Positions 1,715 through 40,602 of a DNA stretch of 49,296 nt are shown here, one piece after another. The stretch's first letter is position 1; every line of letters begins with the position of its first letter. This DNA is from Folioceros fuciformis (taxonomy: Eukaryota), in contig JBNGIO010005968.1 in assembly GCA_049999805.1 (NCBI GenBank), forward strand, positions 1-49,296, given 5' to 3'. Under the pieces are notes generated by a model, which searched no databases, was not told the origin of the DNA, and saw nothing but the letters and a program-made list of their open reading frames with translations. A program made the translations under genes and the position numbers.

Positions 1715-3218
1715 ATGGGAGGCGCCACCGCCCAGTGGCACATGGAGGCGTCCTTGAAAGCGGTGAACGGCAGTCTGATGAAGAGCGTCAAGAGGATGCC
1801 TCACAAGCTAGTGGTGCTGGTGGCCGTGGTGGGCACCAACGTCCTGGCGCTCTACACCATCCTGGGCTACTCCCGCGGCTTCCCGGACGCCGCCAGATCC
1901 GGATCCGGGTCCGGATACATCACCTCGTCCTCCTCCGCATCCGGCCTACCCTTCCTCTCCCTGCCCGCCGGCCACGCGTGCGCCATCACCAACGCGGCGC
2001 TCCTGGCGCAGCTGAACGCCACCAGGGCGGAGCTGCAGCGCGCGCAGCAGGAGCTGGGGCGGGTGCGGGAGCAGGTGGAGCGGCAGGCCGAGCAAGCGCT
2101 CCCGCTGGAGGGCGAGGCGGAGGAGTTCATTACAGCGCGGAAGCTGCCCTTGGGATGGAACCCGTCCCTGGCCACGGACATGTGGAGCGCGACGCTGGGC
2201 CACGGGTGCGTGGCGGGCAGCAAGCAGGCACGACAGGACCTGCTCCAATTCATGACCTACAGCGTGGGCGAGCAGTGCCCCGACGACGAGGAGCTCGCCC
2301 AGCGCCTCCTCCTGGCCGGTTGCGAGCCGCTCCCCCGCCGGCGATGCTTCGCCCGCTCTCCACCCGGCGATGCCTTCCTGGAGCCCCTCCCTCTCCCGGC
2401 TTCGCTTTGGCATGAGGGCCGCCAGCCGGAGGAGGAGGACGGCAGCTACGTCTGGAGCGCATACCAGTGCAAATCCTTCCAGTGTCTCAACGGCCGCGCC
2501 AAGCTCAAGGTCCTTGGCACACTTTTCCCTCCCCTCTCCGTGTCCATGCAAGGCGAAGCAAATGCTAATGCACTCACCCGGATTTGGCGTTGGCGGCATT
2601 GCATTGCAGGTGTTCGCCGACTGCCTGGATTGCTTCGACCTGGGCGGGCGGGAGAGCAAGCGGTGGGTACCGCAGGCCGGCCCCGGGCCCGCCTCGCCGC
2701 TGGACTTCGCGGTGGAGGAGGTGGTGGCGCTCAAGAAGGGGAGCCTACGCATCGGGTTGGACATCGGCGGCGGAACGGGCTCCTTCGCAGTTCGCATGGC
2801 GGAGCAGCGGGTGACCGTGGTCACGTCCACACTCAACCTCGGGGGCCCCTTCAACAACTTCGTGGCGCGGCGGGGGGTGGTGCCGCTCTATATGACGCTG
2901 TCGCAGCGGCTGCCCTTCTGGGACAACACCCTGGACCTGGTGCACTCCATGCACGTGCTCAGCAACTGGATCCCCGACCGCGCATTGCACTTCATCCTCT
3001 TCGACATCGACCGTGTGCTGCGGCCCGGGGGCCTGCTCTGGCTCGACCACTTCTTCTGCCTGCTTCCGCAGCTCAACTCCACCTACCTGCCCATGATCGA
3101 GGGGCTCGGCTACACCAAGCTAAGGTGGGTGGTCGGAGCCAAGCTGGACCGCGGTGCCGACCTTCACGAGATGTACATCTCCGCCTTGTTGGAGAAGCCT
3201 CTGCAAAGACACTTTTAA
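1715..3218 (+). CDS. SAM-dependent methyltransferase, type II membrane (At1g29790-like / Methyltransf_29 related); 2 exons, 1715-2509 and 2610-3218
   Basis: N-terminal TM segment (LVVLVAVVGTNVLALYTIL), CPDD..LAQRLLLAGCEPLPRRRC, SAM motif IGLDIGGGTGSFA, LPFWDNTLDLVHS and DIDRVLRPGGLLWLDHF. A GT..AG intron at 2510-2609 joins the two ORF frames (AKLK|VFADCLDCFDL). Confidence 0.93.
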
Positions 3219-3416: not shown

Positions 3417-6400
3417 TTACAACTTTTTCTGGAACCCCCCGTCTTCTCCGTCGCTCTGCTGCGACTCAATGGTTCGCAGCTCCCATCCACCTTCACCGTC
3501 AATCAATCGAAGTTCTGTTGAATGGAATGGTATAAGCGCTGGCCGCTGCACACAGACACACACAGCTTACAGCATCTGTCAACCTCGCCTCAGCATTTCC
3601 ATGGGCATGGGCATCACGAAAGCAAGAGACCAAAAGGAACTCGTCCATCAAACCTGCGAGATCGTAACAACTGTGATCCCAAGGGACTGCGCCACCCTGT
3701 ACAGCGACTCCTCCACATCTACGCTGGTAGCACTGCATAAGGAATACGAGAGAGAATCATGAGCCACCTGCTACACAAGCTGCAATCTGGTCAGACTACA
3801 GCAGACCCACATTGACTTCTTACTTGGTGCACTCGTCCAGGATTCCAAACTTGGGCTGATGGAAGAAAAGCCGGGCCTGCAATCACGACAAATTAGTCAG
3901 CTCCATCACATTTTACCAGACCTTGCTTAATGGGCCAAGCTTGTGAGCATGTGGTTACCATCCCAAGTCGCTGCTGTTCTCCCAGCGACAACATGTCCTC
4001 CCAGTTCGCAACGGTATCCCATCCTCCTTCCCGATCAAGGAGATACACCAGTCTCACGTCTTCCAGAATCCTTCTCAGTTTGTCATCAAGCACGCTCAGA
4101 GCTTCCTTACTGGGCTCTCCTCTTGACGGCCTCATCCCATCATACCTTGCCTCCTCTGAGTATACACATTATAACAAGAGTAACAAATCACGCCAGTGGC
4201 TTGGGTCGTGTTGTGCACCACTTCCAAGGGGTATATGTACCACACCGGACCACTTCAGCAGACGTACACATACCTGATGAAAATTTCTCTGTCTCTGCCT
4301 TGGTAGCAGCATCCGCAAGAGTCAAAGGGTATATGATCTGGTCCCGAAGAGTCCCCAGTGCGGTGTATGGGCGTTGTGGCACATAGAATATCTCCCTGCT
4401 CAGTCCCCTTCTACTGGAATCATCGGCTCCACCGGGTTTCAATATCTGTCCACTTGCGACAGGCCACAGTCCACCGAGCACCCTGAAAAGAGAGCTTTTC
4501 CCACTGCCGTTCGGACCTAATACACAACCACAAACATCAAATTTCAGACACACAAGCCCCATAACCTTCCGACACGAAGAATAATTGGAGCTGGCCTCGG
4601 CAAAGGTGACCAACCTGTGACTAGCATGCTTTCACCTTCGCTAACATCGAATGACAGCTTCCTGGCCAGCAGCTTTTGAGCTGGAGTGACAACATCCACT
4701 CCTTTGAACACGATCTCATCACTTCTGTCAACAAATGAGGACTCTCCACTTGCCACAGCCCCACCAACTTCATGAGGGGGCATAAGTTCTGCCACAATCA
4801 GATCATCAGTTAAGTACTCAACTGCTTTTTCACCGAGAGCATACAGACCACTACCGCTTCCAGCTCACCATGCTGTGCAGCACCCAACAATTCACCAAGT
4901 TCAGACACTCTGCCAATGTGACCAGACAGCTCCAGGAGTTTCCGCTGCATCTCCAAAACGTCACCAAATGCAAGAAAGCTCTGAGACACCACAGACGCAA
5001 GGAACCGAAGATCGTGGGCAAGGTCCCCTGTCAAAAAGCCAGGACGAACCTCATTAGAACGAGGTCTAATCGCTAACCCCTGTACGACAGAGCAGTTAGA
5101 CTATTTTAATCCAACCAATAACAACTTGTTACCTTGCACAGAAGTTAAAGAACGATCTCCATCATGCTCAAGCGCATAAATCAGACTTAGGCCCCATGTC
5201 ACGTTGTGAGGTAGTTGCTTGTTAATAAATTCGTCAGCGATCCCAAACAGCCAGCGTTTCTTCATCAACTTCAAAGAGTGATCTATCAAGGCTTTATAAT
5301 GCTCCTCTATGACCTGCATGTCGTTTTCAACCTTTCAGCATCTCACTACTCTGCAGTATTGTACAACGTGAACAAGTCCTTGCAGACTCTCTCACGAAGC
5401 AATCAATCAGCGGAACTGTACGTCATCAGAAGCAAGGATGGCTCGTTCTTACAGATTGTTCTCGCAAGCCACCACCAAAGAAGGCAATTGATTCGGCGTG
5501 AGTGCGGAGCCTTGAATGCATGTACCTGCAAAGATTTGAAGGACACCAGGTCAATTGAAATCCAATACAGTGCCTCAACAAATTCATGTCAGGTCTATGA
5601 TTGTGATGCAGGTTCACGTTAGACAGCAGAAGAAAAGGTGAAAAGTTCCTAGAAGGCACCTGTACGCCCCTTCCAACTGTTGCTCTTTGCTTGTTAAGGC
5701 TGAAAAATCTGGGGTAATTGTCCGAAGAAATCCCAAGCCCAGCAGCATGTACAGATATAAGATGCCCACACCTCGTGCACCAGTAAGGGCTTTCATGCGC
5801 ATCGTGAACCTACCACAGTTGAGGGCACTGTCAGCTGAGATAGACTAGGAAATGGTCTAACTACAATAAAAAGGGCATCAACAATGCCTGATACATACGA
5901 TCAACCACCAGACAAATGCAGCAATGGAATCAGGATAGACCGGTCCTGACGTACCACAAGATGTCCACCAAAGGTTTCACCATTCCGGTTACAAGTCCAG
6001 AAAGATCACCGCAGAGCCTCTCCACATCTTGCGTGATCCGCTGATCAACATCCATGCCACTGTCGGACAAGTGCACAGCCTGAAAAGACAAAGCAGTTAT
6101 GTAACATACCATACCACAAATGATGCAATGACGATAACACAGTTCAGTACTGAACGGAGTGACAACCTTATAGAAAGCATTGTTTCGGAAATACAGATTA
6201 GAAAGATGGGCTGTGAGAGCGCTTCTCCAGTTAAGTGCAAGCTTTGCTGTCAAGTTCCTGAAACAAACAATGACCGCCACCATCAGACCCAGAATATTCA
6301 ATAAGTTAACTTGCATTTGCAATCATACAACACTCTTAGCACAGAAGCCTTTTCACTTGTCTCGATAACAGTGTCAATGCGTTCCAGCTCAACCTGAGAG

Positions 6401-9400
6401 ACGGAGCCACAATAGCTGAAGCTGCACTTTGAAAGACACTGACACCCGTGGAATGAACAAAAGCTTCCTTGTCTTGGCTCATAACGTGCTTTACAAGTGT
6501 ACCTGTGCCACAGAAGAGAATCAGGGAACATCACACTTTGACGACCAGAAGACAGGTAGGCAGTGCTTTGAGAGCAAACATACCATTCAGATCAGCAATG
6601 CGGTCAGAGATGTATGTTCGGGACCCAACCAACAATGCAACAGCTAGAAGAGTTACACCCTGTTTGCTTGCAAGGCTTGGTACCTGAATCCAGTTATTAG
6701 CCTATGAGATCATGCAAGGGAATGTTAGCCAAAATAAGCCAAAAGAAGTGTAGTTGATACCAGAATTTTGCGCAAGTTAGCCACTCTAACGCTTGTGCTT
6801 TGGGGTACAGTCTGCAGTCGAGGTACTTGAGGTACAGGTGCATTAACATCTACTGGGGGCGATCTAGCCAATATTGAACGGACGTAAGACTCTAGTCCCT
6901 TGGAGCTTTGACCATCAACGTCCTGAAAACAACCCACATTGTCATGTCCGCATAGATGACAAAATGCAGCACTCGACATATGCTTTGTCAATGCCATAAT
7001 CCCAAACCTCCACATACCTTTTCCTGCACTGCCGAAAAATGCCTCTTTACAGTGAGAGCATCCTGTGACCGCTCGCTATGAACCTCACCATCCCTCACAT
7101 CCACAGGGAGTGCATCAGAAGTACGATCCCTGCCATACGTTGAAAAAAAGTTACACCAACTGCTTCTCGGGCAAGACAAGCTATAATGTAACACTGCCAA
7201 ATGCCTCAGCAAACGTCACCTTTTGTAATGCACACTCCAGCCGCCCTCACCATCCAGAGAGAGCACTGTATCATGAAAAGCTACAAGGGCGGGTCGGTGA
7301 GAGATTGTAACACATGAAGTGCCCATAGCACGAACTTGAGCACAAAATCGTTCTTCCATGTCAGTGGTCACTGCACTTGTGCACTCGTCAAGAATAGCAA
7401 AAGCTGGCTTGTGATAGAACAGTCGAGCCATTCCTAATCGCTGTTGTTCTCCTAGAGACAAATTGTCTCCCCAGTTAACTATTTCGTCAGGAGGATACCT
7501 GTCGAGCAGGTATTCCAGATCCACCTGTGGGCATGGGAATGTGTCAAAACCCTCCAACTTGATTGCAATGAATGCTGATACCAAGCAGGCCCATGTCTGA
7601 TTACGGAATGCAAACAGGTGTATGTGACAGCGTGAACAGAGATTACATTTCTGAGTAAGGCACGCATGCCTTCTACTGAAAGCGGCTCCACTTCCTCGGC
7701 CGCAGTCAAGGGATAAATAAGTTGGTCCCTCAGAGTTCCAACAGCCATATACGGTCGTTGTGGCACATAGAATATCTCATGACATAGGTCTGACCCAACT
7801 CCAGGCTTGGTGATGCGACCAGCAACCAATGGCCAGAGGCCACCTAAAACCCGAAACAAGGAGCTCTTTCCGCTTCCATTTGGACCTGGATATCATGCTT
7901 TATCAGATAAAGCTACAATGAAAAACTATTGGGCAGACAAAGCAGCCCTGCACAGCTAGCATAATTACCAGTGATAAGAAGATTGGTGCCCGGTTCAACC
8001 CTCAGTGTCAAGTCTTCCACAAGAGTTGCACCTGTAGGAGTGACCACCTGCATCCCAAACAGGGGCACACATTCTAAACAAACCGTTCAAGAGACAGACT
8101 CCTGATTCCAGGATCTCAAAGTGTTTGCTGCACATCATACCTTCACCCCCTCAAACTCGATGACTTTTCCCTCCCTAATCTGCCCAATACCGCTACTTAC
8201 TGAACCATTGCTGTCACCAGCAATGCGGAGCTCATGTGCAACTGCCAAAAGCTCTTGGATACGATCGGCATATCCACTGCAGAGAAACAACAATCAGAAA
8301 ACTGTAACATTTGTAAACAATCATCATTATGTAGGCCGAAAGCAATGCAGTCATGGGAAGTTCTCGACCTGAGGCGTTGAAGCTTTCGAGTAGAGCTAGC
8401 TAGAGAACCTAAAGACTGGAACATGGATATGATGACACTCGTATGGTAGCGCATATTGCTGAGCATTTTAGCTCTGCCCAGAGTTGTGTTGTCAGGTTTT
8501 AGGTCTCCAGAGAAGAAAGGATGAATGATCAATACAGCTCCAAAAGTTGTCCCCAAATACTTCAAGAAAAAGTCCTGGATGATCCCAAACCACCACTGTG
8601 TGAACAGAACACGATCCAAGTGTCTCACAAGTTTCCTAAAGTGCTGGCGAATGATGGATCCTTCCCTGTCCTGCCCACCGTAGAACGCTATGCTTTCTGA
8701 CTGCGTTCTAACTCTTGAGTGCTTCTGCCTGTATTCCCCTTCCAGCTGCTGTTCCGTCGAGGTAAGCTTGCCAAATGGAGGTGATATAGAAGCGGTGAAG
8801 CTACCCACCCCAACAACATAGGCCTGAAAACAAGAGTCGTGGCAAATGAAATATGTCAGCAGTCACCAACGGTTGCCTGCAGTGTGTACTGAAAGAAAAT
8901 GTTCTTCATCTCAATAGAGGCGTACCAGAATTCCTAAGGCATACTTTGGGCTGGCATAAGTACAAAGGCGCCACGTATACAGAAGTCCTTCAAACGTTGC
9001 TGTCAAGTTTTCTTGCACAATTTCACATAGCTCGTGACAGAACTTCGGTATATCACTGACAATGATTTGCTCTGGGCTACCAATACGGCGGTCCACATGT
9101 GACATCTTGTAGTAAGTCATATTCTGCAACGACCATGAGCAAGGAGGAAACCGTTCAGCACCCGGAAACAAAAAGACACAGCCGATAGGCAGCCTCGAGC
9201 AAAACACTTGGACATGGGACAAAGAGTTCCTTCCTGAAGCACATCACCTGAAAATAATCATTATGTATCTTCTTTGTGAGTATCTGGCAGCATCTCAGAC
9301 TGAGCAAGCCGGACAGGTACTTGGCCGTAGATATGAAGGATGACTGAAGAAGACAAAGGATGAGATTTTCTACAATGAGCCGCATAAAAAGCGGTACTCG

Positions 9401-9836
9401 TCTGAGGAAAGCAGCTCTGAAGAGAAAGGCTTGCACTTTCGCCAACCTGTTGCTCAAACCAGTTCGCAGAATCTGTAACGACAACCGTTCAAAACTCACT
9501 CAGCAGCTGATTCCAGATCCCTGTTCTTCTCACAAACAAGAGGGAGGAGGACGCGAACTACTCACAGCAATGCCTGCTAATGCCACAAAATTTGCCATGC
9601 CTTTATTCCCCATCTCAACACGCAAGATGTCAGCCAGCACTTTCACGTTCTTCAATCCGGCTCTCTTTCGTTTGCCTTCCGCAGGTCCACGACTCGAGCC
9701 CGTCGCCCTTTCACTCGATTCGGCTTCATCCGTCCCAGAACCCCGAGGTCCACGTGACTTCTTACTAGCGCTCAAACGGCTATACGCTACCCCGCATCCC
9801 AGAACAAGCGCTGTTGTTGCATACACTACAGCTCGT
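3417..9836 (-). CDS. ABCD1: Full-size peroxisomal ABC transporter subfamily D (COMATOSE/PXA1/PED3 ortholog), multi-exon; first exon unresolved near the gap at 9931-10030
   Basis: Two TMD-NBD halves. EAA-like motifs [10 protein letters not shown] and [10 protein letters not shown]; two Walker [20 protein letters not shown]; signature [15 protein letters not shown]; Walker [15 protein letters not shown] and TISQRPAL. Last exon ends ...GGFQKKL* (TAA 3417-3419). The introns I checked are GT-AG. Confidence 0.96.
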
Positions 9837-9930
9837 CTGCGAAACCAGACACAACCGACAATAAGAAAAAACCCGAGAGCAACGGGACCGGACGAATTCC
9901 AACACAAACCCACACCTCCTCTTCCCTAAC

Positions 9931-10030
9931 NNNNNNNNNNNNNNNNNNNNNNNNNNNNNNNNNNNNNNNNNNNNNNNNNNNNNNNNNNNNNNNNNNNNNN
10001 NNNNNNNNNNNNNNNNNNNNNNNNNNNNNN
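9931..10030. other. Assembly gap (100 N)
   Basis: Run of N. Confidence 1.
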
Positions 10031-11190
10031 AGTCCTCAATTGCGACGTCGCCATTCCGCCAACTGCACAAGAAAGATGAAACAAAACAGACGAATTTCAT
10101 GAACAACATTCCTCCTCCCTTCCCACAAAGGGTACGCCCCGTCCCATTCTAGTCCATCACCAGGACCACTGCATCGAGAAACCTGCTAGAAGCCTAACTT
10201 GGACATATTGTTACAGCGAGAAACCGAAACATCTCCTGCACACGCAACCCCTGCTCTCTCCCGCACCCGCGGGCCAGCAATTCGGATCCAAGGCACGCAT
10301 TCCCGAAATGGAGAGCTCAATTCACAATCCAAATCACGGAGCTGAGCACTGGACACCACGGATGGAACAACCTACATGGCACCAGAGTGAGCTGAAGCCG
10401 AGCTGTGTTCTTCCGCAAATTCCAATCAACCCCGCAGCGAATTACAGATGCGCCGGCGGATCCAGCGCCACGGAATGAATGAGAATTCCCCGCCTCCCCG
10501 CCTGCTCCCGTGCATCTGCGGCAGCTGAGGCACACAGAGCCGCGGATCTGAGCGGGGAGGGAAGCAGGGATGCCGACGCCTTCAGGCAGGCCCGCTGTGC
10601 TGCGCGGGGATCTGAGCAGCACCGAGAGCGTAAACAACGGCGAGAGAGTCTAAGGTACTGCCGGCAGCAGCCCACGCTGGCGCGTGCCTCCAGTCACGGC
10701 ATCTTTTCGGCGAATCGCAGCGCCAAACAAAAGCTTCGCTCCGCTTCGCTCACGGCGAGTTATTGCCGAGGTGTGAGTCTCTGGTACCTTGCCAACTTTC
10801 ATTTCTCCCTGCCCGGACCGGATTCCTGTTGCTTTCCCACATGTCCCTACTAGTGGCTCAGTCCAAGCCTTTTCTGGGCCTCGTCCAGGAGCACTTGCAG
10901 CAGACGATAAGGATTGTTGTGGTGTTGGTGCAGGATTTGTTGAGCGTGGCCGTATAATTGTTGCAGTCAGGTTCAAGGAGGAGAAAAATGTCACGCAACG
11001 GACACCATCAGGACACAGGCTCCACACAGTACACACGAGTATCTAAAGGCAAGATCCCCGAACCACCCAGGGCCCTCACGAGGCCCTGAATACGACAGAG
11101 AAGGCTTAACGACCCCGCAGATGCTGCCTGATAGGGACGACCTGCGGGTTACGATGTGGGAGAGGAGGGGGGACGAGGGACGAGAGGAGT

Positions 11191-13468
11191 TCATTTCACA
11201 AGAGCGTGGATGTAGTCCTTGAAGTGGAACGCCTGCTGCGTGTAGGACGCCAGCGCCTTGGAGAGCACAAAGCTGGCCAGTGCAATCCCCGCCAGGACCA
11301 CACCGAAGCTTCTCCCTACCACCAGCCCCGGGCTCAGGGCGGAGGCTGCCAGGAACGCCACCAACGCATACGCCACGAACTGCAGTGCCGTCTGAGCGGC
11401 CTGGAAAAATCCCAGGGCGGCACGACAGTGCGGGCACTTCTCGACATGCAGAGCGTACCTGCGCAGAGCACGGGCATGACATGAGCGTGATGTGCATGAC
11501 AGCCCTAATCAACATCGACAGGCGAGGGACATGACGCGGTGAAAGGAGACCTGTCCAGCAGCTGCCTTCGGGAGGGCGGGTTGGCCTCCGGGCTTGCAGC
11601 CCTGGCATGGCCGGAAAAGTCCACTGCGCTGCCGCTGAACTTGTGGAACCACTTCCTGAAGGCTATCACGCATGCGTCTGCCGTAGTGGGGACGTAGCAG
11701 AGCTTGAACCAGCGCTCGTTCCCGCCAAGCCGCTCGAACTTGTGCTCCTGCATGACGTGGAGGTGGTTTTTACAGGCCGAGAAAGTGACTACCCCGCATG
11801 AATCGAGATGGGCAACCCAGCACAAACTTACCATGGAACGCAGAAGCCCGAGGTCCGACACCAGCACAAGCATGTTGGTCTGGTGGGCGATCCAGCGCGG
11901 AGTCAGCTGGTACACTATCTTTGCGAAGTTCCGAGGAAAGGCCCAGAAGAGCTTGCTCTTCCCTGGAGCCACAGGGACGCAGAAGAAGAAGAGAGTGACT
12001 CGCCTGACCTTGGCAGGCTTCATCTCGTCCCGTGGTAAGGGTAAGATTCTCTTCACCCATTCCGACCTACTCCAACCAAGCAAAACGCCCAGGTCAGTCA
12101 CAGGAAAGCACGCTGCTGTGGTGTGCACCACGAAATCTCAGAAATCCACACCACCGAGGCCTGGGGAACGACAAACCTTGCCCTTTCGGGCTGAGGTGGT
12201 AAAGTGAACCTCAGAGTGGCAAGCAGCGGAGCCTCAAAAGCCACTGGACCCCGATTCGTGGCTTCCCCAACAAACCCCGTCTTGCTGATTTCCTTCACTC
12301 GCAAGTCGTACGGCCGGGCTTGATTCCGGTTCCCCTGTCACCACTAACCCTCAGTGCCACCATACCCACAAACAAAACACACACAAAGATCTTCCAGACA
12401 CCACATCTGCCCACGTTACCTGTATCTTGTGATGCGCAAAGGGAACATGACACGGATCCAGGAAGTTCTCGATCAAGGTCTCGTACCTGCAAAAAAGGCA
12501 GGAGCGTCATGTCATGTCACTACCGAGCCGGGCGTCCCTTCCACCTGCCACCCACCTTGCTTACGAGTAAGGCAGCTCCGCCATGGCCAGGTCGGAGAAG
12601 AAATCCGGGTCAGTCAACTCCGGGTGCGAAGGAGGCGGGCTGGCGGTAGCCCGCTGGTGCGCGCCCTGGGAGCTGTCCGGCCATACCCAAATCATGCGCT
12701 GGTGCAGCGTGCTGGGGAACACGACGGCGCACGCCCGCTTCGACAGGTGACACTGCGGCCATCCGAACCCAACAAAACCCACCACTAGAATCAGCCCTTC
12801 GAGCCCATGCCATTGCAAGCCCGCAGGCTCCGGGTGCATTCCGGCGTGAACACGGCACGTACAGGGGGCCCGTCCGCGGGAGCCTGGGGAATGGAGGAGC
12901 AGGCGCCGGTGGCCGGCGCGAACGTCCACCCGTGGTACGAGCACTGCAGATGCCCCGTCTCCGCCACCCTGCCCTCCGAGAGGGGCGCCAGCCGGTGCGG
13001 GCACCGGTCCTCGAACACCTGCCATGCCGCCCCCTTGGGATCCCACCACACCACCATATCACGCCCCAGCACTGTGGCCGGGTGCGGCACCCTCTTGTCC
13101 AGGTGCTCCGCGATGAAAACCGGGTACCACTGCGACCTCCACTCGAACCTCTCCCCACCGGCTGCCCATTTCGATTCCGACTCCGGCTCCGACTCCGCCA
13201 CTTCCTGCACTGTCTCTGCAGGCGCAGCCACTGCCGCAACCCGCAAGGCCTTGCCTCCCCTCGACCTGCCCTTCCCGGGCCGAGAAGGCAGCGGCAACCT
13301 GATGTCACGTGACTCCCAAACCCGGCTCACGCGACCGCCTGCCACGCACGTGAGCGCAGGCCGGATGAAGCCGGCGCGGTTGCAGATGGTTGCAGCAGCA
13401 GGAGGATCGACGGCCAGGCGCTGCCCCGGGGGCGCGGAGATTCCACACGGGTGCAAGATATAAGCCAT
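11191..13468 (-). CDS. PTC52: Plastid Rieske-type oxygenase, PTC52/ACD1-like (PAO family), multi-exon
   Basis: Transit-peptide-like N-terminus; WYPV..LDKRVPH; Rieske [11 protein letters not shown]...[16 protein letters not shown]; mononuclear Fe motif [14 protein letters not shown]-terminal HVEKCPHC (CxxC) plus TM helices; ends [12 protein letters not shown]. Confidence 0.9.
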
Positions 13469-13504
13469 AGTGCAGTGTGCGGAAGTGGTGAGCGGAGAAG
13501 GAAT

Positions 13505-15159
13505 TTAGTAATGGGAGTGAAATTGGTTCAAGCTCAAGTTCACAACGCTGGATGGATTGAACTGCAACGGCGATCCCCAGCCGAGTGAAGCGTCTGGCGT
13601 CCAGGTGATGTCCATCTCGGAAAAGGTGGCGTCCTGTACGTATTCCATGAAGATACCAGCTGTACCGTCGAAATCCACGAGCCCTTGGCAGCCTGGGCGG
13701 TAGTCGTGCTTCCCACCCGGGTACGTTGTGCTGCGTTCCAGCCGCACGGACACGTTTTCGAAGTTGAGGCCGTTCAGGAGGCTGTCCGTGGCCCCCGCTA
13801 GGAAGATGCCGTTCTCGGACGTTGCACTGATGTTGACGAAGCGGACGCCCTGGACGGAGCCCACGCCCGGGGTGGCGGCCTCGCGAGCGCAGGCAGTCAC
13901 GTAGATGGGCTCCGCGCGCCCCCACCAGGAGGGGTCGTAGTAGCGGGTGCTCAGCTTGATGTTGGCGAAGGTCACGTTGCGGACGGAGCCTGGAACAGGG
14001 AGGTGAGGGCGTTGCTTGGTGACTTGCTTGAATTGCAGGTGCGGGATAGGCACGGCCGGGTAACGAGAGTTACCTGAGTCTCGGAGCTGGACTGCGAGGC
14101 CTCGGTGTGAATCCTCGATGAGCAGCTTCTCGAAGTGGAGGTTGGTGAAGTCGTACACGCTTCCACTGCCCAACTTCACTGCACTGGACTTGGTTCTGAT
14201 CCAGCAGTCGGTCACTGTGAGGTTGGTGAGCGGGCCTCTGCTGGTCTTGGGGCAGATGGCGTCGTCCCCCGTGTCAATGTGCACTCGCTGGATGGATGTG
14301 TTGTTGGAGCCCTCGATGTCGATGCCGTCGTTGTTGGGGCAGTTGAAGTCACCGTAAATATCCACGTCCTCTATCGTGACATGGTTGCATAGCACGACGT
14401 GGATGCTGCACTGAAGGGAGGATTAGAGCTGGTTGGGTAGGGCATGGAGGGTGAGAGGGAGGAGATGCGAGGGATTGAATTGAGTACCCACCACCAGTAA
14501 GCAGGCTCACGCAGGTGTATCTTCCCGATACGGACATTGGTGCAGTTGAGGAAGCCCACCAGCCGGGGCCTGCACTCGTCACCGGAGCATGCTCCTGTTT
14601 GGTTCCAGCTCACCATAATGTTCTTCTCCTCCTTGAATTCCGTCACAAACTTGAGGCCTTGTCCGTCGATCACTCCTCCTCCGCTGATGCCTACCTCGTC
14701 CGCGTCCTCGGCCAGGATGAGATACCACCTGGAGGCATCCTCGGGGTAGTCCTGCTGACTGGGGCTGCCCAGGATCGTAGCTCCCTCTGCCACCTGGAGA
14801 GTGACACCGGACTTCAGGAAGATGGTGCCTGTGAGATACGAGCCTGGTGGGAATACAACCAGTCCTCCTCCTGCGCGGGCACAGGAGTCTATGGTGCGCT
14901 GGATGGCAACGGTGTCGTACAGGATGCCATTCCCGGTTGCCCCGTAGTCAGATACAGAGTACACATCCTTCCCGTAGTCTGATACAGAGTGCACCTCTTT
15001 CTGTCTCTGATTGCTCTCAGCCCACCCCAGCCCCAGATCTTGTTTCGTATCACTGCTGTGAAGAGCGATGTGAGGAGAGCTGGGAATGTCAGCCACCGAC
15101 AGCTTGTGAAGCAGATGAAGAGCCACTAGTACAACACAGAACAATCGTTGAGGGCACAT
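13505..15159 (-). CDS. Glycoside hydrolase family 28 (polygalacturonase / pectin lyase-like), 3 coding exons; possible upstream in-frame exon starting near 15416
   Basis: Signal or anchor segment LFCVVLVALHLL; VSDYGATGNG..DT.AIQ.ID.C; FPPGSYLTGTIFLKSGVTL; NNDGIDI; TGDDAICPK; WWGRAEPIYVT. A candidate GT-AG intron at 15254-15355 would join an upstream ATG-containing exon in frame. Confidence 0.92.
14941..14994. repeat. In-frame 30-bp tandem duplication within GH28 (VHSVSDYGKD / VYSVSDYG)
   Basis: CCCGTAGTCnGATACAGAGTnCAC occurs twice with a 30-nt period. Confidence 0.85.
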
Positions 15160-15719
15160 GTTCGCAATTGTACTTTTCAGATCCACTGCTCGACTACCCG
15201 ATCTATTACCTCCCGGGCCGCCGCGGCCTGATATGATTATATAACAGGAGCTTCTGCAAAATGCAACAAGCAAGCACTCCTAACTTGATACAGCTGAACC
15301 TTCCAAGTCAAGAAACAATCAATACAAGGCGTAAGGACGGTGCAAAACTCCTCACCTGTGAGCTTTAGGCTGGCAATGCGGCGAACGCTGCAACATGTCA
15401 GGAATTGCATAGGTCATCTGCTCACATGCAGGCGCAACCAAGTTAGTCCACAAACAACCAACGGCTCCATGACATAGGGGCCAGAGAGCAAACGGAAAAA
15501 CTGTGATGTGAGCAAAGCACCTCGGATCGCCAGTGCGAAACATTTCGCACCTTCTGCTGAAACAGCTTAGAAACCCTCTCATTGACGCAAAGGCTGACAC
15601 AAACAGGCGTGCGGGATGGAGTGATCTCCGGCTGTACGGGATGTCCGATCGAAGAACTGGCCAACCACCACAAAGAACCTGCTCGGCGCGAAGAGAGTCG
15701 CAACAGGATAACGATACCA

Positions 15720-18326
15720 CTACCCCTTAGCGCACGCGTCTTTGCCCGGCTGTGGTTTCAGGTTCAGGAAATCAGATCGAGCCAGGTAAAATGCCACAAT
15801 GTCTGCATCCGCTTCAGCGTTACCGGTGACCATTATTTCCTTCCTGTCCACCTTCGTGGAGCCATTCAAGCATTGTGACGTGACTTTCTTCTGTCTCCTC
15901 CTTCTCCCGTCCTCCTCTGAGACTGAAAGGCCGTTCGCAGACCAAGCCCTGCCATCCCTCCTGTCAGCGCCATGCATGCTTGCAGGCCAAGCTGGTTCGT
16001 AGCCGTGGCACGTTGATCGAGAGCTCAAACTTGGAGTCCTCAATCCGTCTTGATTCTCCACAGGCATGATACTGCCTCCAGAGCCCTTGCTCGCTTCCAA
16101 AGGTGCGTGCAAAGAGACATCTGTGGAAACCGCGGAAGCGGTAGAGCATGCTGAAAGTGAGAGTGGATGATCCAGACTCCCGTCCCCTCCCGCCGTCAAG
16201 CTTCCATGCTTATTATGCGCATTCACAGGACCTTGCAAGAGCCCTAACCAAGTCTCAAAGTCGGTATGTAGCTTCACGCGACTTCGTTCTAACAGGGTAT
16301 GCAAATGCTCAACCTCCTTCTTCAAATCTCGTAGTTTCGTAAACCCGTCTCTGTAAACTCGTTTCTCAGCATCAATAGATCCGATCAATTCATCGTCCTC
16401 ACCATAGTGCTCTGTGTTTCCTTGGTCCTTCCCCTCTATCAGATTCTGCATTGCGCGATCCACTCGTTGCTTTTCTATCTTCGTCTTCAAAGAAGTGATG
16501 TTTTCCCTTGCTTTGTTCACCGCATCACCAAGAGCCTTGGCTTCCTGGTACTTCTGTTTGAGAATGGCCTTGTTCTCGTTTATGGAACTCATGCTTGGAT
16601 AATTAGAGCAAAAAATCTCGAAACATTGCTTTCTACCAAAAAGTAGTTTATTCCTTGGACTTGAGCCAGAGCTTTCAATACTAGGTCTAGGAGAGTTCAA
16701 TCCTTGTAACACATTATTCACTCTAGTATCCACATCTGATGACTCTCCATGTGCTGCAGGTTCATGAATTTGCAGTTTTGACATGAAGTCTAATTTTTCA
16801 GTATCATTACCTAATTCATTTTGACGCTTCCTTATGAAAGAGACAAGGATATTGATCTCATTGTCTCTTTGTTGAATTTCATACTTCAAATTTTGAATTT
16901 GTTTCCACAAATCAAAGGCATTGCTTTGAGCAATGTCATTACTTTCGAGGCAAGCTCCAGCAGGCTGATCCTTTACATCTCTTGAGTCCTTGATTAAGGA
17001 CTTGAAGATACGGAAAGCGTTTTTTATGTAGAACATGCTAGATCCACAATTCAACTGACCATCCTGTGAATCATCACTTATGAAAGTGAGAATTTCTTTC
17101 CTAATTTGCTCAACATCATCGGCTGTCTTGGAGCACTCTACCATTTTATCCTCACTAGTAGCCTTCAACAATGCAATCTCATCTTTGAGATCAAGTATTT
17201 CTTGCTTCAATCTTTTTATCAGTAATGTAGGATCTATTTCCTCATTGATCTCCACCTTATTAGACACCATAGCCACACGCTGTGCAAATCGGCAAGTCGA
17301 GATTGTTTCCTCTAATTGATCTTGTGCTACACTCACGGTGGCTATCATCACAGTTTTGCAATTCCCACCCAAGGAATCTCGGAGCATAGATGTCATCATG
17401 GAATTTCGATATGGAATATGGTTACGATGCTTGCCCTGACTTCTTTCTTGCAAGGCTATGATTACTTGTTCCAAGAAGTGTAGTGATAAATTGATGTACT
17501 TAGCTTCCTTCAAAATCTGACCATCAACTTTTGTCTTGCTTACTCTCTCTGACCCGGCAAGATCAACTAAGTGTAGCTTAGATCGTCTTACAATGTCCTC
17601 TCCCGCTTTACGAGCCTCAATAGTTGCTGTGAAGATACAGTGAGATCTGCTACTTGCCATGTTCATAGGTGTAGCGCTGATCATTCTGTTGGTGTCACCC
17701 ACAAACAACAAATTCAAAGCTTCTTCCTCGTTTGAGGCCAAATGCATTGATAGGTTCCGCAAGTGGATGCAGTTATCATCGTCTTCCATTAAAGTCACTT
17801 TGGGAAGATCTTCCAAGGACTTGGTTTCATGATCTGGGTCAAGGAGATCATACCCTGTTTCATTGTAGATTTCAAGATAGGAGAAATGCACAATGTAAGT
17901 ATATTCAGTTCTTTTTGCTAAGTCACTGAATATGAGAGAAATAGAGCGAGGTATCACACCCCTATCCACATATCTTTCTGCTCCTCCAGTAATTGTGTAG
18001 GTCTTTCCAGATCCTGTCTGACCATAAGCAAAGATGGTGCCATTGTATCCATCTAGTGCTCCTAGTACCACTTTGTGAGCCACTGTTTCAAAGATTGTGT
18101 CCTGCTTTGTGTCCATGTCGAAAATGCTTGTGAAACTAAAGTTGTAATGCTCTCTTTGATGATTTATCATCCCTAGTTGGGCTTGTCGAGGAATAGACCA
18201 TTGCACACAAGTTTTGTCTTCATCCAATTTGTAGGTAGATGCTCCTGCTGTGGCATGTGGGCGCATTCTGAGATATATTTCAATATTGCTGTTAAAACCA
18301 CCACCTTCTCCTTGAGGAGCTCCCAT
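15720..18326 (-). CDS. KIF6: Kinesin-9 family motor, KIF6-like, single exon, 868 aa
   Basis: P-loop GYNGTIFAYGQTGSGKT; TGGAERY.DRG.IPR; SYLEIYNE.GYDLLDP.HE..SLEDLPKVT; GDTNRMI..TPMN..SSRSH; LVDLAGSER; EAKYINLSLHFLEQVIIAL; HIPYRNSMMT. These closely match KIF6 as recalled. The C-terminus is coiled coil. Confidence 0.93.
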   Translation of the reverse strand: MGAPQGEGGGFNSNIEIYLRMRPHATAGASTYKLDEDKTCVQWSIPRQAQLGMINHQREHYNFSFTSIFDMDTKQDTIFETVAHKVVLGALDGYNGTIFAYGQTGSGKTYTITGGAERYVDRGVIPRSISLIFSDLAKRTEYTYIVHFSYLEIYNETGYDLLDPDHETKSLEDLPKVTLMEDDDNCIHLRNLSMHLASNEEEALNLLFVGDTNRMISATPMNMASSRSHCIFTATIEARKAGEDIVRRSKLHLVDLAGSERVSKTKVDGQILKEAKYINLSLHFLEQVIIALQERSQGKHRNHIPYRNSMMTSMLRDSLGGNCKTVMIATVSVAQDQLEETISTCRFAQRVAMVSNKVEINEEIDPTLLIKRLKQEILDLKDEIALLKATSEDKMVECSKTADDVEQIRKEILTFISDDSQDGQLNCGSSMFYIKNAFRIFKSLIKDSRDVKDQPAGACLESNDIAQSNAFDLWKQIQNLKYEIQQRDNEINILVSFIRKRQNELGNDTEKLDFMSKLQIHEPAAHGESSDVDTRVNNVLQGLNSPRPSIESSGSSPRNKLLFGRKQCFEIFCSNYPSMSSINENKAILKQKYQEAKALGDAVNKARENITSLKTKIEKQRVDRAMQNLIEGKDQGNTEHYGEDDELIGSIDAEKRVYRDGFTKLRDLKKEVEHLHTLLERSRVKLHTDFETWLGLLQGPVNAHNKHGSLTAGGDGSLDHPLSLSACSTASAVSTDVSLHAPLEASKGSGGSIMPVENQDGLRTPSLSSRSTCHGYEPAWPASMHGADRRDGRAWSANGLSVSEEDGRRRRQKKVTSQCLNGSTKVDRKEIMVTGNAEADADIVAFYLARSDFLNLKPQPGKDACAKG

Positions 18327-18849
18327 TGTAATAGAAGCAAAGAGGAAGATAATTCAACTAGCTCACTTCACACCATTGAATCTTGGAGACAACAACAGCA
18401 ACAAAATCGTAAGAACAAGATGTAACTACAATGTGGGCAAGAGAGGTATGAAAAAAAAGGGAAAGGAAAAGGAGAGGAGACTTTTTGGGCCACATTCGTG
18501 TGCCTTGTCAACTGAAGTGGTGAAAAGTCACCCAGAAGAGAGAGAGGGAAAGGGGAAAAAGAGTCTAAATACATACATACGTACATACGTTGATATGTAT
18601 ATCACGAAGGCTGTACCAATTCCACTTTCAGGCGACTGGGAAACGAGGGCAACGGCCAGCCAACTGCCCTTTTCCCGCTCTTCTTTGTGATGGTCGAAGT
18701 GTGTTTCCGGCTTCCTTGCATCAGGGTAGCCTGGAAACAACGGTTGCGTTCGACGCGTTGCATTTTGCTGAGACGGTGTCTTCGGGGCACGTGATTCGCA
18801 GATGCTGGACATCGCCGTGACGTAGAGCGTGGAACGGAAACCAATTTGC
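18327..18849. promoter_or_regulatory. Putative bidirectional promoter between KIF6 and the FAM184-like gene
   Basis: About 520 bp between divergent start codons. Contains AACGGTT at 18739-18745, a MYB-type site. Confidence 0.55.
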
Positions 18850-29000: not shown

Positions 29001-32000
29001 AGGATGGTCTTTCATAGACTCAAGTAATTCTGATCAAATGGCCATGTTAGTCTCACATAATCCAACAACTGCCGCTGATGCGCTTGGGAGTGTCAGTACC
29101 GACCCTGTCAGCACAGACCTTGAAGACTCTGATTTAAGGGAGGACGAGGTGACAAGTGCCCAGCAATTTGTTTGTCACCCAAACACCTATCAATTATCAA
29201 AGCCGAGCTTACATAATTTAAACATTGCTGTAAGCAGAGACATGGAAGACTCTGATCCAAGAGAGGAAGAGGTGACAGGTGCCCAGCAAATGGCATTTGG
29301 CAAAGGAACAGGTGGAGTACATCAAGATAGCACATGTAGACCTGTCAGCACGCCAACCTGTGGCTTTCCCCTGCTGGAGAACATTGCCGGTGGGGAGGTT
29401 AACTCGAAGGATGAAGACCCTGGAGAGCGAAGGAACTGTGAACTTTCTATGGAGGAGCTCATTGTTAGCTTTTGCTCTCACACGCAGGTGGTGGCCTTCA
29501 TCTGGGCTGTGTCTCGAAGAGTGATTCCTCCACAACTGCTTGGCTGCAACAAGAGTAGGAGAGCCCTCCGGAGAAGCCTTGCCAGGTTCATCTCTCTTCG
29601 AAGACATGAAAAGTTCTCTTTGGCACACTTCTTCTACAGGCTTAGAATGCAAGGGTTTGGCTGGCATGAAGGTGTTCAACAAGCTACACAGAAGCCTTTC
29701 TTGAAGGCACCAACGAGGAGAATCCTTGAACTCTGGTGCTCTTGGTATTTCAGTCGCTTTGTGGGACCTCTTCTTCGTGCACACTTCTACGTCACAGAGA
29801 ATGAGAACCATAGAAGAGATGTATTCTACTATCGGAAGCCAGTTTGGGCCAGGATAAAGTCTATAGCTTTGAAGGACCTTGTTGACACCAGCTTCAAGGT
29901 GGTCAGTCCCAGCTGTCTGGCTTCCACACTGAAGAAAAAGATTCTCGGATTTTCAAAAATCAGGTTTGTACCCAAAAAGAACGGAGTGAGGCCAATATTG
30001 AACCTTGGAGCTCCGTCGCGCTGTACAGTCAGGTCTGATATTCCGAGAGAGCCCCTTACCTTCAAGGAGGTATTTGGCAAGGTAGTACAATCCATTCATG
30101 AGAGAGACGCCAATGGCTCCAGGGGTGGGCCGAATAATTCCCGGCATTGGGGGAGAAAATTCCAACTCGTTTTCAAGCCTGTCAATACAGTCCTTCGAGA
30201 TGTTCACAGCNNNNNNNNNNNNNNNNNNNNNNNNNNNNNNNNNNNNNNNNNNNNNNNNNNNNNNNNNNNNNNNNNNNNNNNNNNNNNNNNNNNNNNNNNN
30301 NNNNNNNNNNTGACACCTACATGAAGCTCGTCCCTTTTGTTATGGAACTGAAAAGCTCGGGAAATGGGCTGCCGCGTTTATTTTTTGGGATATGCGATGT
30401 TGCAAAAGCTTTTGATACAATCCAGCAGCCAAAGCTATGTGACATAGTGAGCAAGTTTTTACAACAAGAACGATATATTGTGCGCCGTTACGTTTCAGTT
30501 CTTCCAACAGTTGGTGGTGTGAGAGTCTCCCATGAAAGGGCTTGCACTTCCTGGGGAGAGCATCAGAACTTTATCGATTTCGCTTCATCTCTGACAAGAA
30601 ATTCTCAAAATCGTATTTATACAGACCAGGTAGGCTTGTTTCCTTCTTTGTTTTCTGACTTTTCCAGATTGAATCGAAGATGTTGAGGAAGTGCAAGTGT
30701 TTTGCGGCAGGTTTTCTTTGCTACATTATGCCGAGAAAGGATTCTTGCCATGCTGGATGATCACGTCAGAAAAAATATCTTGCAAGTTGGATCTAAATTC
30801 TATGTGCAGACAGTGGGAATCCCACAAGGGAGTGTGGTGTCGTCTCTACTTTGTTGCCTATTTTATGGCCATCTGGACCGACATTGTCTTCTACCATGTC
30901 TTCAGAAGTTTTTGGAGCCAAATGGCAATGGACATGTGACAGAGCCAATTCCCTCCGAGGGTGAAAGGAAAAGGTCCTTGATGGCGCCCTCTATAGACAA
31001 TCTGGTCAAGTGTTCTGTAGAAAAAGGTGCTGACTCTGTTTTGGAGGAGTCTGGGTGTTGTAGAAACGTTTGCAAGAGCAAGGTGATGTTGACCGATGTG
31101 ACAAATACTGCGCCAGACTTTGTGCCTGCTGTGGCTACAAATGCAGCCAAGTTTATGTTACTTCGGCTCATTGATGATTCTCTGTTCATCTCTACCTCTC
31201 AAGCACAGGTTTCCTTGTATGTGAATAAAATGCACAACGGATTTGAGGAGTATGGATGCCAGGCAAACAAGAAGAAAACTGCGGTGAGCTTTGACATGTA
31301 TTGCAATGAGCAGTTCATTCCCATGAATGTCTATCAGACTGAAGATGGAGCGCGGTTCATGCGATGGTGTGGACTACTTGTTAACTGTTACACACTTGAA
31401 ATCCAAGCTGATTATATCAGGTTTGCCTGAGGTGCCATGGGGTTGCTGTTTGCTGGTTGTCTGGTTGTGGATCTGTATTTCAGATTTCTACAGGGTTCTA
31501 TGTCGTCCTTTTCTAGTGATAATAAACCAGCGATGTTTTGACAGATATTGTGGAGAGCACATTGGCTCTTCATTGACAGTAGTGGTGGAGAACAATCAGG
31601 GAAACCATCTAGTGATCAAACTGTGTCAGTTTATGAGACCGAAATGTCACCCGCTGTTCTACGATTTGAACATCAACTCACCGGCTACAGTGAGGTTGAA
31701 TGCATATCAAGCGTTCCTGCTCTGTGCAATGAAGTTTCATGCCTATGTGCGTGCAATGCCTCGAGTTGGTGCTTACAATCCCACTTTCCTGTTCAAGGCT
31801 ATTTGGACAACAATCAGGTCATCTCCTCTCTTGCGTGTTGTCGGTTTAAAGATTTTCAAACAATATAGTATGAAACTTACATGAGGTTCAACTGTCATTT
31901 CTGTAGATATATGCATCGACTCGTGAAACAGCGCATGCGTACCATGGGCCACATTTCCAGTTTCCGGCCAAGTTTTTCATTCCCTCTGCAGGAGATGGAA

Positions 32001-34232: not shown

Positions 34233-34986
34233 GCTTGGGCAGTTCTGACTGCCAATGCGTCCAGTATCCGTCAGGCAAGTTCTGCACCTCTAGTGAATGC
34301 ATGGTGCTGCAGGAAAGACGCATGGGGCGGATTCACGCAGGCAGATGCGGAGGGATAGGATGTCTGCCCTGGTTGGGTCAGCTGATGGAGATTCTGTGCC
34401 AGGATTATGCCTGCAGTGCGGTCCAGTGCGAGGATTCTTGCTATCGTTGAACCTGGCTGATTCTGGGTCTGATGGTGCTGGAAAAACAAGTTGCAGGCTG
34501 CGTGAGCCTGCGCGGGAATGTGATGTGCGATGTTGCTGTACCTGCCTGCGCTCCGGAAGCAAGAACAGACTGCTAAGACGGGAGACAGTGGGAGAAATTG
34601 CGCGCCTAACGTGAGCCTTCCTGCGCTCTCGCGATCTCCAGCTTCAAGGAGAGCGGTGGCAGCCTCCGCCGCCAGCAGTCGCGTCCCTTGGGCTTGGGCC
34701 AATCGTTGCGGCCCCTTCTTTCTCCGTCCGTCCCAACGGGTCCCGTTTACGGAGAACCCTACGGCTCTTCACCTCCATTTCTCGCACGCCCGCTCTGTGC
34801 TGTGGGAAGGAGAGTCCTGGCGGCCAGGCCATCCTGCTACCCTCCCGGTCTGCACAGGTACGATCCGAGCGTATGACTCTTCTCGACCTGCACGTAGCTG
34901 TCTGTGGTCAGGTCCTGCTGACTCTTCTTGTCATGCGATCTGCAGAGTTGTTGATCGTCTCGGAGCGGCAATTCTTTTAGGTTAAG

Positions 34987-35703
34987 ATGATCAACTGCGA
35001 GGCCATTTCCTCCCTGGCTCCCACAACCCCCTCCACAACTCGCAAACTTGACTCGGATGAACCGGCGCCTCCATTTCTGACGGCTATACTGGACCATGAC
35101 ACAGCGCTGTCCTGTTCACTGTACCAGAAGGGCCTGACATGGAATCGGTACTACCTTCAGCTTCTGGAGTACTCTGGAGATGGCAGATTCTGGATCCCGG
35201 TCACTATAGCCATCTGGCTGGCTCCCTTTGCCGGGCATCTTAGCCTCAAGATCTTCAGTCGCAATCTTTTCCTAGGGTTGCTCCTCGATCTTGCGGTGGT
35301 TGGCTCACTGAAGCTCTTGGTTCGAAGGCCACGTCCAGTGTACAACCCAAAGGGAATGTTCGTTGTGGCCTCAGCAGACCATTGGTCATTTCCCAGTGGC
35401 CACTCCACCAGAGTTTTCCTGATTGCCACCTACTGCTGGCTGCACCTTCCTTTCTGGAAACACGTATTTTTGACATCTCTCACCCCTTCTCCCTCCAGTC
35501 TGGCCCCTCAACCCATCTGGCAGACCTCGCTTGCTGCAGTCCTTGCTTTGGTCTTCACTGGGACACTGTCGGCTTGGGCTCTGCTGACCGCTACTTCAAG
35601 AGTTCTGCTCGGTAGACATTACGTGCTGGATGTAGTGACTGGCTGCATTCTGGGTGTTTGCCAAGCTAGTTTCGTGCACTATTGTGTGCCATTGCAGCTA
35701 TGA
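34987..35703 (+). CDS. PAP2-family lipid phosphate phosphatase (LPP-beta-like), single exon
   Basis: PAP2 motifs KLLVRRPRP, SFPSGH and SRVLLGRHYVLDV; LEYSGDGRFW; several TM helices. Confidence 0.93.
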   Translation: MINCEAISSLAPTTPSTTRKLDSDEPAPPFLTAILDHDTALSCSLYQKGLTWNRYYLQLLEYSGDGRFWIPVTIAIWLAPFAGHLSLKIFSRNLFLGLLLDLAVVGSLKLLVRRPRPVYNPKGMFVVASADHWSFPSGHSTRVFLIATYCWLHLPFWKHVFLTSLTPSPSSLAPQPIWQTSLAAVLALVFTGTLSAWALLTATSRVLLGRHYVLDVVTGCILGVCQASFVHYCVPLQL

Positions 35704-35977: not shown

Positions 35978-38318
<2,341 letters not shown>

Positions 38319-38851: not shown

Positions 38852-40602
38852 TCAAGAGTTTCCCAGGCCATCGGCACCCTTCACTGGCCGTCGATTGAGG
38901 TAGCGAATGACAGCATCTTCCACCCTGCAACGCCAACGGGAAAACTTGTAAGTGGTCCCTCTCCAAGCAGAGAGTTAAATATGGCAAGGCAGGCGTGAAA
39001 ATCCGGAGGTCATACATACCAGGGCTGATTGTAGAAGTCCGACCGACGCTCCTTTTCGGCATTTCGGTTTGGTTGACCACTGACCATTTTCAGATCTCTA
39101 CTTTGGGATGCAATTAAGCCGTTGATGAAATCAACAGGTGAGTGGCTGAAACCAAGAAAGAAAGCTCTCCGCTTCCTGTGCTCATTGATTTTCCTTATAG
39201 AGGCACAGATGATCTCGTCGTAGTTGTCAATATCCCTGTGCTTTTCAATGTTTGCGAGAAAGTTGTTCATCTCCTTTTGCAGAGGAGCCGGAACATCCAC
39301 TGAAACATCGTAGCAAGATTGCCCTAGAGAAGAAAAACGAGGTGTCAGCAAGAGCGTCACACACAGGCGATCACCTATAGCTAGCTAGGCCCAGCCTCTA
39401 GCTCCCCCCTAAGGATACAAAGGTCAGGACAAACGTGTTACCTGCAGGGTTCCTGCCACTGACTTTGATGCGATGCTCAAGCTGAATGGGTTGAGGTGTT
39501 GAAAGATGCGGATGCAGTTTCTGGGCAACATAAGCAAACTTGATGGAATCGTCCTCAAGAATCTTGCGCAATGGTGGATCACAGTTGATGACCGTTGGGT
39601 CAGAGGGATTCTGGAGTTTCTTGCCCTTGATGTACTGCCATAGTGCAGCTATGATCCTGGGCCTGGTGTCCACCTCCACCCCGAGAAGCTCAGCAAGACT
39701 CTGAGACAATTTGAACCTCTCAGGACTGTAACTGAGCTCTAGCTTGATCTTGACGTTGAACTCCTTGTCCCCCTTCCTCTTGATCTCAAAACCCTCCACG
39801 GAGTTGTTGGTCCGTGCTCCATCCCAGACAATGGTGTTATTGTCCGGGTACAAGAGTGGATCCAAGTTAACTGATATCTTCTTAAAAAAGGAAGAGAACT
39901 TTGGCAGGTTGGCAGCCGCCTGAGAATCCAACCCAGCTTCGTCGAGAAGCCGTCCCATAATTCTAAGATTCCAAGACGGTCCATCCTGCGGTCTACCCCC
40001 TGGCAAATTCTGTGCGTGATCATTCACTTGGTTGTGGTAGGTATTGAAAATATACATCCTAAGAGTGCGTTGCATTCGAGGCGGGTTCCTATGTAGACTC
40101 CACGCACAAACAACCCACCACCAACACATCAATCATGCAGAACATCCCAGTTGGAACTGCCAAGTGAAAAGACGCTTCACAGCACATAGCACAAGGGCAG
40201 CTCCAACCAGAAAAGCCTTTACCTAACAGCCTCCTGAATGTCCAGCTTCTTGCGGGTGAGAGCGGCATCCACCCGAGCCTCGAACTCCAGCAGCTGCGTG
40301 TAGATAGCGGACTCCGGCAGCAGCGCTGCTATGCGTTCCGGCAGCTGCTTTTCTTGCACCTTGCGCTTCTTCCTGCGGGCAGCTGGAGCTAGCTCCTGAG
40401 CCTTGTAGGCGTTGTTAGTCACTGCTGCAGTGGACGCCACAGCCGACGACGGTGCTGGCCGCCCCCTCTTCTTGCTGGGAGCTGCCATGCCTTGGCCTCC
40501 ACCTCCAGTTGGTGGCGTTGCCACTCTGTTGTACACCGGGGACGGCGCCTGGCCGTAGGGTTGCATCTGCGCGCCTGACCCTGCTCCCTGCATCGCTGCC
40601 AT
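38852..40602 (-). CDS. SWP73: SWI/SNF complex subunit BAF60/SWP73 (SWIB/MDM2 domain), 4 exons
   Basis: LPESAIYTQLLEFEARVDAAL.RKK.DIQEA; TLR.YIFNT; SWIB domain DTRPRIIAALWQYIK.KKLQ; IHEH-like INEHRKRRAFFLGFS.SPVDFIN; last exon WVEDAVIRYLNR...GNS* (TGA 38852-38854). Confidence 0.95.

Follow-up and report, generated by a model that had tools for sequence, protein, structure and literature searches.

Two complete protein-coding genes of Folioceros fuciformis lie tail to head on the same strand, with only 36 nt separating their coding sequences (CDSs). The upstream gene is predicted to encode a GH28 protein and the downstream gene a member of the PAO/PTC52 family, for which 'PTC52' serves here as a label; the matches listed carry both names, pheophorbide a oxygenase and PTC52. 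The geometry of the junction, the completeness of both genes, their splice joints and the unbroken RNA-derived sequence across the junction are all observed. We consider it probable, though not strongly so, that these are two separately translated nuclear genes whose transcription units overlap tail to head, with some read-through RNA produced in addition. The most likely form of this overlap is one in which the PTC52 transcript starts within the last GH28 exon or directly downstream of it.

The window analysed is the whole 49,296 nt stretch of contig JBNGIO010005968.1, and all coordinates refer to it. Contigs from several sequencing runs were compared with this sequence: X1, a public run from the same organism that was guessed to be RNA and whose RNA origin rests on its spliced contigs; X2, a low-depth DNA run; and X4 and X9, from related organisms (B and C, respectively). 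All four consist of contigs, and a contig over two genes shows neither a single molecule nor the starts and ends of transcripts. The features of the locus are as follows.

15720..18353, minus strand: KIF9-like kinesin, single 877-aa open reading frame (ORF), first gene in the chain (Pfam Kinesin 8.3e-99, KIF9 7.9e-40)
15254..15551, minus strand: GH28 5′ UTR region (X1 record 3; splice sites read in the sequence)
14492..15159, minus strand: GH28 coding exon 1, ATG at 15159-15157 (X1 joint 14405/14492; Pfam Pect-lyase_RHGA_epim 5.9e-09)
14074..14405, minus strand: GH28 coding exon 2 (X1 joints on both sides; Pfam Glyco_hydro_28 3.4e-09)
13505..13989, minus strand: GH28 coding exon 3, including the stop codon TAA at 13507-13505 (joint over an 84-nt intron in X1, X4 and X9)
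13458..13531, minus strand: A+T-rich island with a CCAAT-containing 12-mer, ATTACTAAAT over the stop codon and TATGGCTTATAT over the ATG (12-mer scan)
13469..13504, minus strand: 36-nt spacer (sequence; covered by X1 record 1 with 0 mismatches)
12863..13468, minus strand: PTC52 coding exon 1, ATG at 13468-13466 (Rieske 3e-21; joint 12752/12863 in X1, X4 and X9)
12752-12565, 12486-12420, 12334-12177, 12066-11832, 11747-11551 and 11458-11191, minus strand: PTC52 coding exons 2-7, stop codon TGA (contig joints with CT..AC ends; Pfam PaO 8.5e-17)
10376..11190, minus strand: PTC52 3′ UTR and first (5′ UTR) exon of the next gene (one unbroken X1 contig; exon end at 10376)
4191..10062, minus strand: ABCD-type transporter (ABC_membrane_2 and ABC_tran, twice), fourth gene in the chain (Pfam matches on ORFs 4191-9499)

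The minus strand reads TAC TAA at 13510-13505, and the base that follows the GH28 stop codon is A. The spacer (13504-13469) consists of 12 sense codons, ATTCCTTCTCCGCTCACCACTTCCGCACACTGCACT, is 75% pyrimidine, and is followed directly by the PTC52 ATG. The two stop-to-stop ORFs (13505..14422 and 12791..13504, both minus strand) abut in one shared frame. An earlier note on this DNA had given these positions, counted 12 sense codons and pointed to the common frame and to the A that follows TAA, and every one of these agrees with the sequence on re-reading. Given the local base composition, such a spacer would be both in frame and free of stop codons by chance with P ~0.24. The open, in-frame spacer is thus not beyond chance, and only the 36-nt distance is unusual; the remaining two CDS-to-CDS gaps in this co-directional chain of genes measure ~560 nt and ~1.1 kb. 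The earlier note had also reasoned that 36 nt are too few to hold a 3′ UTR and poly(A) site together with a promoter and 5′ UTR. Its gene assignments and this logic hold and, because the RNA contigs run unbroken across the spacer, the transcription units must either overlap or be one.

The GH28 CDS (15159-14492, 14405-14074 and 13989-13505) comprises 1485 nt and encodes 494 residues without an internal stop codon; its first coding intron (14491-14406) is defined by an RNA joint. The product matches PF00295 (Glyco_hydro_28) with 36.7 bits (cut-off 22.9) and PF12708 (Pect-lyase_RHGA_epim) with 36.5 bits (cut-off 27), and in most of the matches listed for exon 3, 96-100% of the exon is aligned to a GH28 protein. 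The protein ends 2 residues past the last conserved F-x-S, and nine homologs end between 2 and ~25 residues past it. These profile matches, and the homology to plant polygalacturonase-like proteins, place the upstream gene in the GH28 family, with its activity predicted. The N-terminus is hydrophobic and resembles a signal peptide, and the product is predicted to be a secreted pectin hydrolase-like protein. The best GH28 and Rieske matches, with 54-66% identity, come from lycophytes, ferns and liverworts, which, along with the presence of a KIF9-type kinesin, suits a seed-free land plant.

The 5′ end of the GH28 gene was read from X1 record 3, in which record positions 1-762 correspond to 14492-15253 and positions 825-1274 to 15551-16000. 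The 62 letters left between these segments face 297 bases of the window. This pattern suggests that the 5′ UTR contains two GT..AG introns (15550-15418 and 15355-15254) flanking a putative 62-nt internal exon (15417-15356). The first 5′ UTR exon appears to reach beyond 15551 in the upstream direction and to overlap the kinesin gene at its 3′ end. The 15254-16000 joint reflects either UTRs that overlap or readthrough from kinesin into GH28, with splicing between the two genes.

The PTC52 CDS comprises 1719 nt in seven exons (13468-11191) and likewise translates without an internal stop codon. Its product matches PF00355 (Rieske) with 75.6 bits and PF08417 (PaO) with 61.5 bits, and the CPH...C-x-x-H columns are invariant in an alignment with 10 homologs. 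The Rieske [2Fe-2S] and PaO domains thus assign the downstream gene, at the level of sequence, to the PAO/PTC52/TIC55 type. A presequence of ~107 residues precedes the first invariant column, and an unconserved N-terminal extension is also present in all 10 aligned homologs; the product is predicted to be a chloroplast Rieske oxygenase. The ATG at 13468 had been proposed to supply the sole in-frame Met ahead of the Rieske domain, and it does: the Pfam domain occupies residues 125-209 of the 237-aa ORF, and the Met that follows, at residue 138 of the protein, already falls inside the domain. This position of the next Met, along with the agreement of the protein ends with those of homologs, indicates that both genes are complete and that the ATG at 13468 is a credible start.

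All eight coding introns (six in PTC52, two in GH28) are confirmed by spliced X1 contigs, with CT..AC ends on the plus strand corresponding to GT..AG on the minus strand. X1 record 1 (8365 nt) matches 10376-13992 with 0 mismatches. It contains PTC52 with its six introns spliced out, the spacer and GH28 exon 3, and the contig ends at the 5′ edge of this exon. Unbroken 31-mer paths over the stop codon, spacer and ATG show that RNA molecules cover the junction. In X4 and X9, the PTC52 and GH28 contigs are separate, and alignment at ≥85% is absent over ~13253-13622 (X4) and 13388-13658 (X9), where the uncovered part is no evidence in either direction. Contig depths differ between the GH28 and PTC52 pieces, and such depths cannot rank the genes.

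The earlier note had named a collapsed or misjoined assembly as the finding that would undo the observation, and this is not borne out. The study and year of X1 differ from those of the DNA runs made for this organism, and its contig spans 12863-13992 with 0 mismatches, so a misjoin at the junction is very unlikely. A broader version of this concern, in which the assembly is misjoined or a gene end is mis-modelled (an extra GH28 exon, or a 5′ coding exon upstream of PTC52), could draw on two observations: the assembly contains a gap 3.4 kb away, and X2 has contigs on both sides of 13449-13464, with no loose ends there, and none listed across it. Against this, the listed X1 joints include none that leads into PTC52 exon 1 from upstream sequence and none that departs from GH28 exon 3 ahead of the stop codon, and both protein ends agree with those of homologs. 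We regard such an artefact as very improbable. A separate X2 contig (6650 nt, depth 182) matches the window only at 12587-12618 (32 bases) and has long unlike ends on both sides, which probably reflects chance or low-complexity similarity to some abundant sequence from elsewhere.

The two genes belong to a chain of four co-directional minus-strand genes, specifically those for the KIF9-like kinesin, GH28, PTC52 and the ABCD-type transporter, all of which are merged by X1 contigs. In addition to the junction studied here, X1 bridges kinesin and GH28 (record 3) and PTC52 and the transporter (record 1). Because every junction in the chain is bridged, merging is not specific evidence for a GH28-PTC52 bicistron. 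At the transporter end, the loose end of X1 record 1 at 10376 matches 10062-10033, which defines a 313-nt GT..AG intron (10375-10063) followed by an exon beginning at 10062 that likely holds the transporter ATG. A run of N (assembly gap) occupies ~9930-10030, within the 5′ coding part of this gene. At the other end of the chain, the kinesin ORF has a GC content of 0.44 and a GC3 of 0.44, versus 0.58-0.64 and 0.74-0.78 in the next two genes, which have short introns. This sharp compositional and structural contrast with its neighbours could mark the kinesin as a retrogene or as a member of a different expression class.

For the junction itself, the earlier note had left three choices, namely one mRNA carrying both ORFs, overlapping transcription units, or a readthrough fusion protein. 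The contigs cannot choose among these; we rank overlap as most likely, a single mRNA for both proteins as unlikely and a readthrough fusion as very unlikely. In the overlap that we favour, the PTC52 mRNA would start from its own promoter, located either in the spacer or in the final ~150 nt of the last GH28 coding exon. Cleavage and polyadenylation of the GH28 mRNA would take place within the spacer or in the first part of PTC52 exon 1, with the A+T-rich island as a guide. Some polymerases would read through this region and yield minor two-ORF RNAs, of which only the GH28 part would be translated. The positions of the transcription start site (TSS) and poly(A) sites in this model, as well as the dominant RNA species, are its inferred part. 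A GH28 terminator near the spacer is a candidate only, and a promoter embedded in the coding exon is an assumption.

Two sequence features bear on where such signals might reside. Only three A+T-rich 12-mers are present on the minus strand between 13700 and 12381, and all three fall at 13531-13458, where they cover the final GH28 codons, the stop codon and the beginning of PTC52. This A+T-rich island is a candidate site for GH28 3′-end signals, for the PTC52 core promoter, or for both. Furthermore, the last ATG before that of PTC52 is 147 nt upstream. The PTC52 ATG would thus be the first on an mRNA that starts within this ATG-free stretch. The stretch is compatible with a start site in the last GH28 exon, yet its length carries no significance, as GH28 has other ATG-free gaps of 192, 193 and 650 nt.

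An alternative that we consider possible, but rather doubtful, is that GH28 lacks a terminator of its own. Its mRNA would then run through spliced PTC52 to the poly(A) site of that gene with only GH28 translated, and PTC52 would be made from a shorter mRNA with an internal promoter. The X1 contig joins GH28 exon 3 to fully spliced PTC52 as this model would require, although a contig across two genes does not prove one molecule, and readthrough RNAs are described alongside monocistronic ones in Arabidopsis (PMC9768141). None of 17 poly(A)-type motifs, including AATAAA, has a match at 13507-12400 on the minus strand, 1.1 kb past the GH28 stop codon. This says little, because the PTC52 3′ UTR likewise lacks AATAAA and the canonical hexamers. 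The A+T-rich island, moreover, is located exactly at the GH28 stop codon, which counts against this model. Six exon junctions would also lie downstream of this stop codon, and the RNA would be an expected NMD target, as described for Arabidopsis (PMC9768141). A run-on RNA would therefore be a poor main mRNA for a functional GH28 gene.

A further alternative, which we judge unlikely, is an obligate bicistronic nuclear mRNA of the green-algal type, with one promoter, one poly(A) tail and translation of both ORFs. The unbroken RNA-derived sequence over both ORFs agrees with it, as does the 36-nt inter-ORF distance, to be compared with algal medians of 40-260 nt given in PMC7896298 and PMC11291117. 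The same sources give medians of 291-600 nt for the algal ORF1, against 1485 nt here, and the algal bicistron literature that they represent describes reinitiation past a long ORF as inefficient (PMC7896298, PMC11291117). ATGs are not depleted upstream of ORF2: the GH28 CDS and spacer contain 11, 10 of them internal, compared with a mean of 12.5 in 2000 codon shuffles, 34% of which have ≤11. With 10 internal ATGs and no depletion, leaky scanning cannot reach the PTC52 ATG. The start contexts are A at -3 for GH28 and C at -3 with G at +4 for PTC52. Second ORFs are seldom translated in Arabidopsis, as described in PMC9768141. In Diphasiastrum, Ginkgo and Mesotaenium, the best-matching homologs of GH28 and PTC52 have locus tags from separate chromosomes or scaffolds; because these homologs may be paralogs, this is a weak sign against ancient linkage. 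The PTC52 protein most likely comes from its own mRNA. One constitutive bicistronic mRNA might instead be translated by efficient reinitiation or another non-scanning route, with the pyrimidine-rich spacer as a reinitiation platform; we rate this as improbable, if anything slightly more so than the algal-type mechanism. If true, it would differ from the leaky scanning of green algae.

We give almost no credence to readthrough of the TAA codon to form a GH28-PTC52 fusion protein. The two ORFs share a frame and no stop codon interrupts the 12 spacer codons, although this is the arrangement for which the chance expectation given above is ~0.24. TAA followed by A is not known to be a leaky context. 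The earlier note had graded readthrough as the less likely of its options, and the additional searches agree. The RNA fold around the stop codon (13560-13420) is unremarkable (z -1.36; 22 of 200 shuffles are as stable), and a search of Rfam over 10050-16000 with E up to 0.1 returned 0 matches. No fused homolog is present among the matches listed, as a GH28 domain occurs in 0 of 120 longer PTC52-type matches to the Rieske exon and a Rieske or PaO domain in 0 of 120 GH28-type matches to GH28 exon 3. Furthermore, a secretory signal peptide ahead of a chloroplast presequence would presumably be topologically senseless.

Among known systems, the locus fits the readthrough loci of Arabidopsis, by analogy, as an example that is extreme in its spacing. 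The earlier note held polycistronic mRNAs to be little documented in land plants, which is true only in part, because 271 readthrough or polycistronic loci are described in Arabidopsis, with independent TSSs for 202 of the second genes (Kurihara et al., 2022, PMC9768141). According to the same account, the second ORF was rarely translated in seven of eight tested bicistronic readthrough RNAs, and readthrough RNAs are NMD substrates (PMC9768141). As in those loci, the genes studied here are co-directional protein-coding neighbours in a land plant, and RNA-derived sequence is continuous over their joint (PMC9768141). In contrast to them, the 36-nt CDS gap makes overlap obligatory rather than occasional (PMC9768141). 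A further difference is that intergenic GH28-PTC52 splicing is absent among the listed joints, and the locus is known here from contigs.

Exclusively bicistronic mRNAs of green algae are described as having a short ORF1 with a weak start context, ATG depletion upstream of ORF2 and translation by leaky scanning (Gallaher et al., 2021, PMC7896298; Duenas et al., 2024/2025, PMC11291117). The GH28-PTC52 pair shares with them a very short spacer, co-directional ORFs and no reliance on a common frame, and departs from them in the two features tested, ORF1 length and ATG depletion (PMC7896298, PMC11291117). Among the papers listed on polycistronic RNA in hornworts, most deal with organelles or methods and none reports a nuclear hornwort polycistron. 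In CDC26-TTM3 of Arabidopsis, the upstream ORF encodes a very small protein, unlike the 494 residues encoded here. CDC26-TTM3 is a land-plant nuclear bicistronic transcript that is said to give two proteins (cited in PMC9768141).

If the overlap that we favour is correct, the locus would be a clean extreme of gene packing in a compact land-plant genome, in which promoter and terminator signals would need to lie within the coding sequence of a neighbour. Such pairs would be useful for the improvement of annotation pipelines, which are prone to fuse or truncate them, and for work on how the end of one transcript and the start of the next are separated within a few tens of bases. An obligate bicistron, if true, would matter much more, since translation downstream of a 1.5-kb ORF would be unexplained by the algal mechanism.

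High gene density is reported for Anthoceros genomes (PMC8075897). Over the window studied here, genes occur at about one per 4 kb. ORFs at 30687-31881 on the plus strand match RVT_1 and TERT_C and represent a telomerase reverse transcriptase gene. Further genes were recognized by their Pfam matches.

34981-35700: PAP2 phosphatase
36890-37588: class I/II aminotransferase
39401-40132: SWIB/MDM2-domain protein
44042-44701: glutathione peroxidase
2256-3215: methyltransferase
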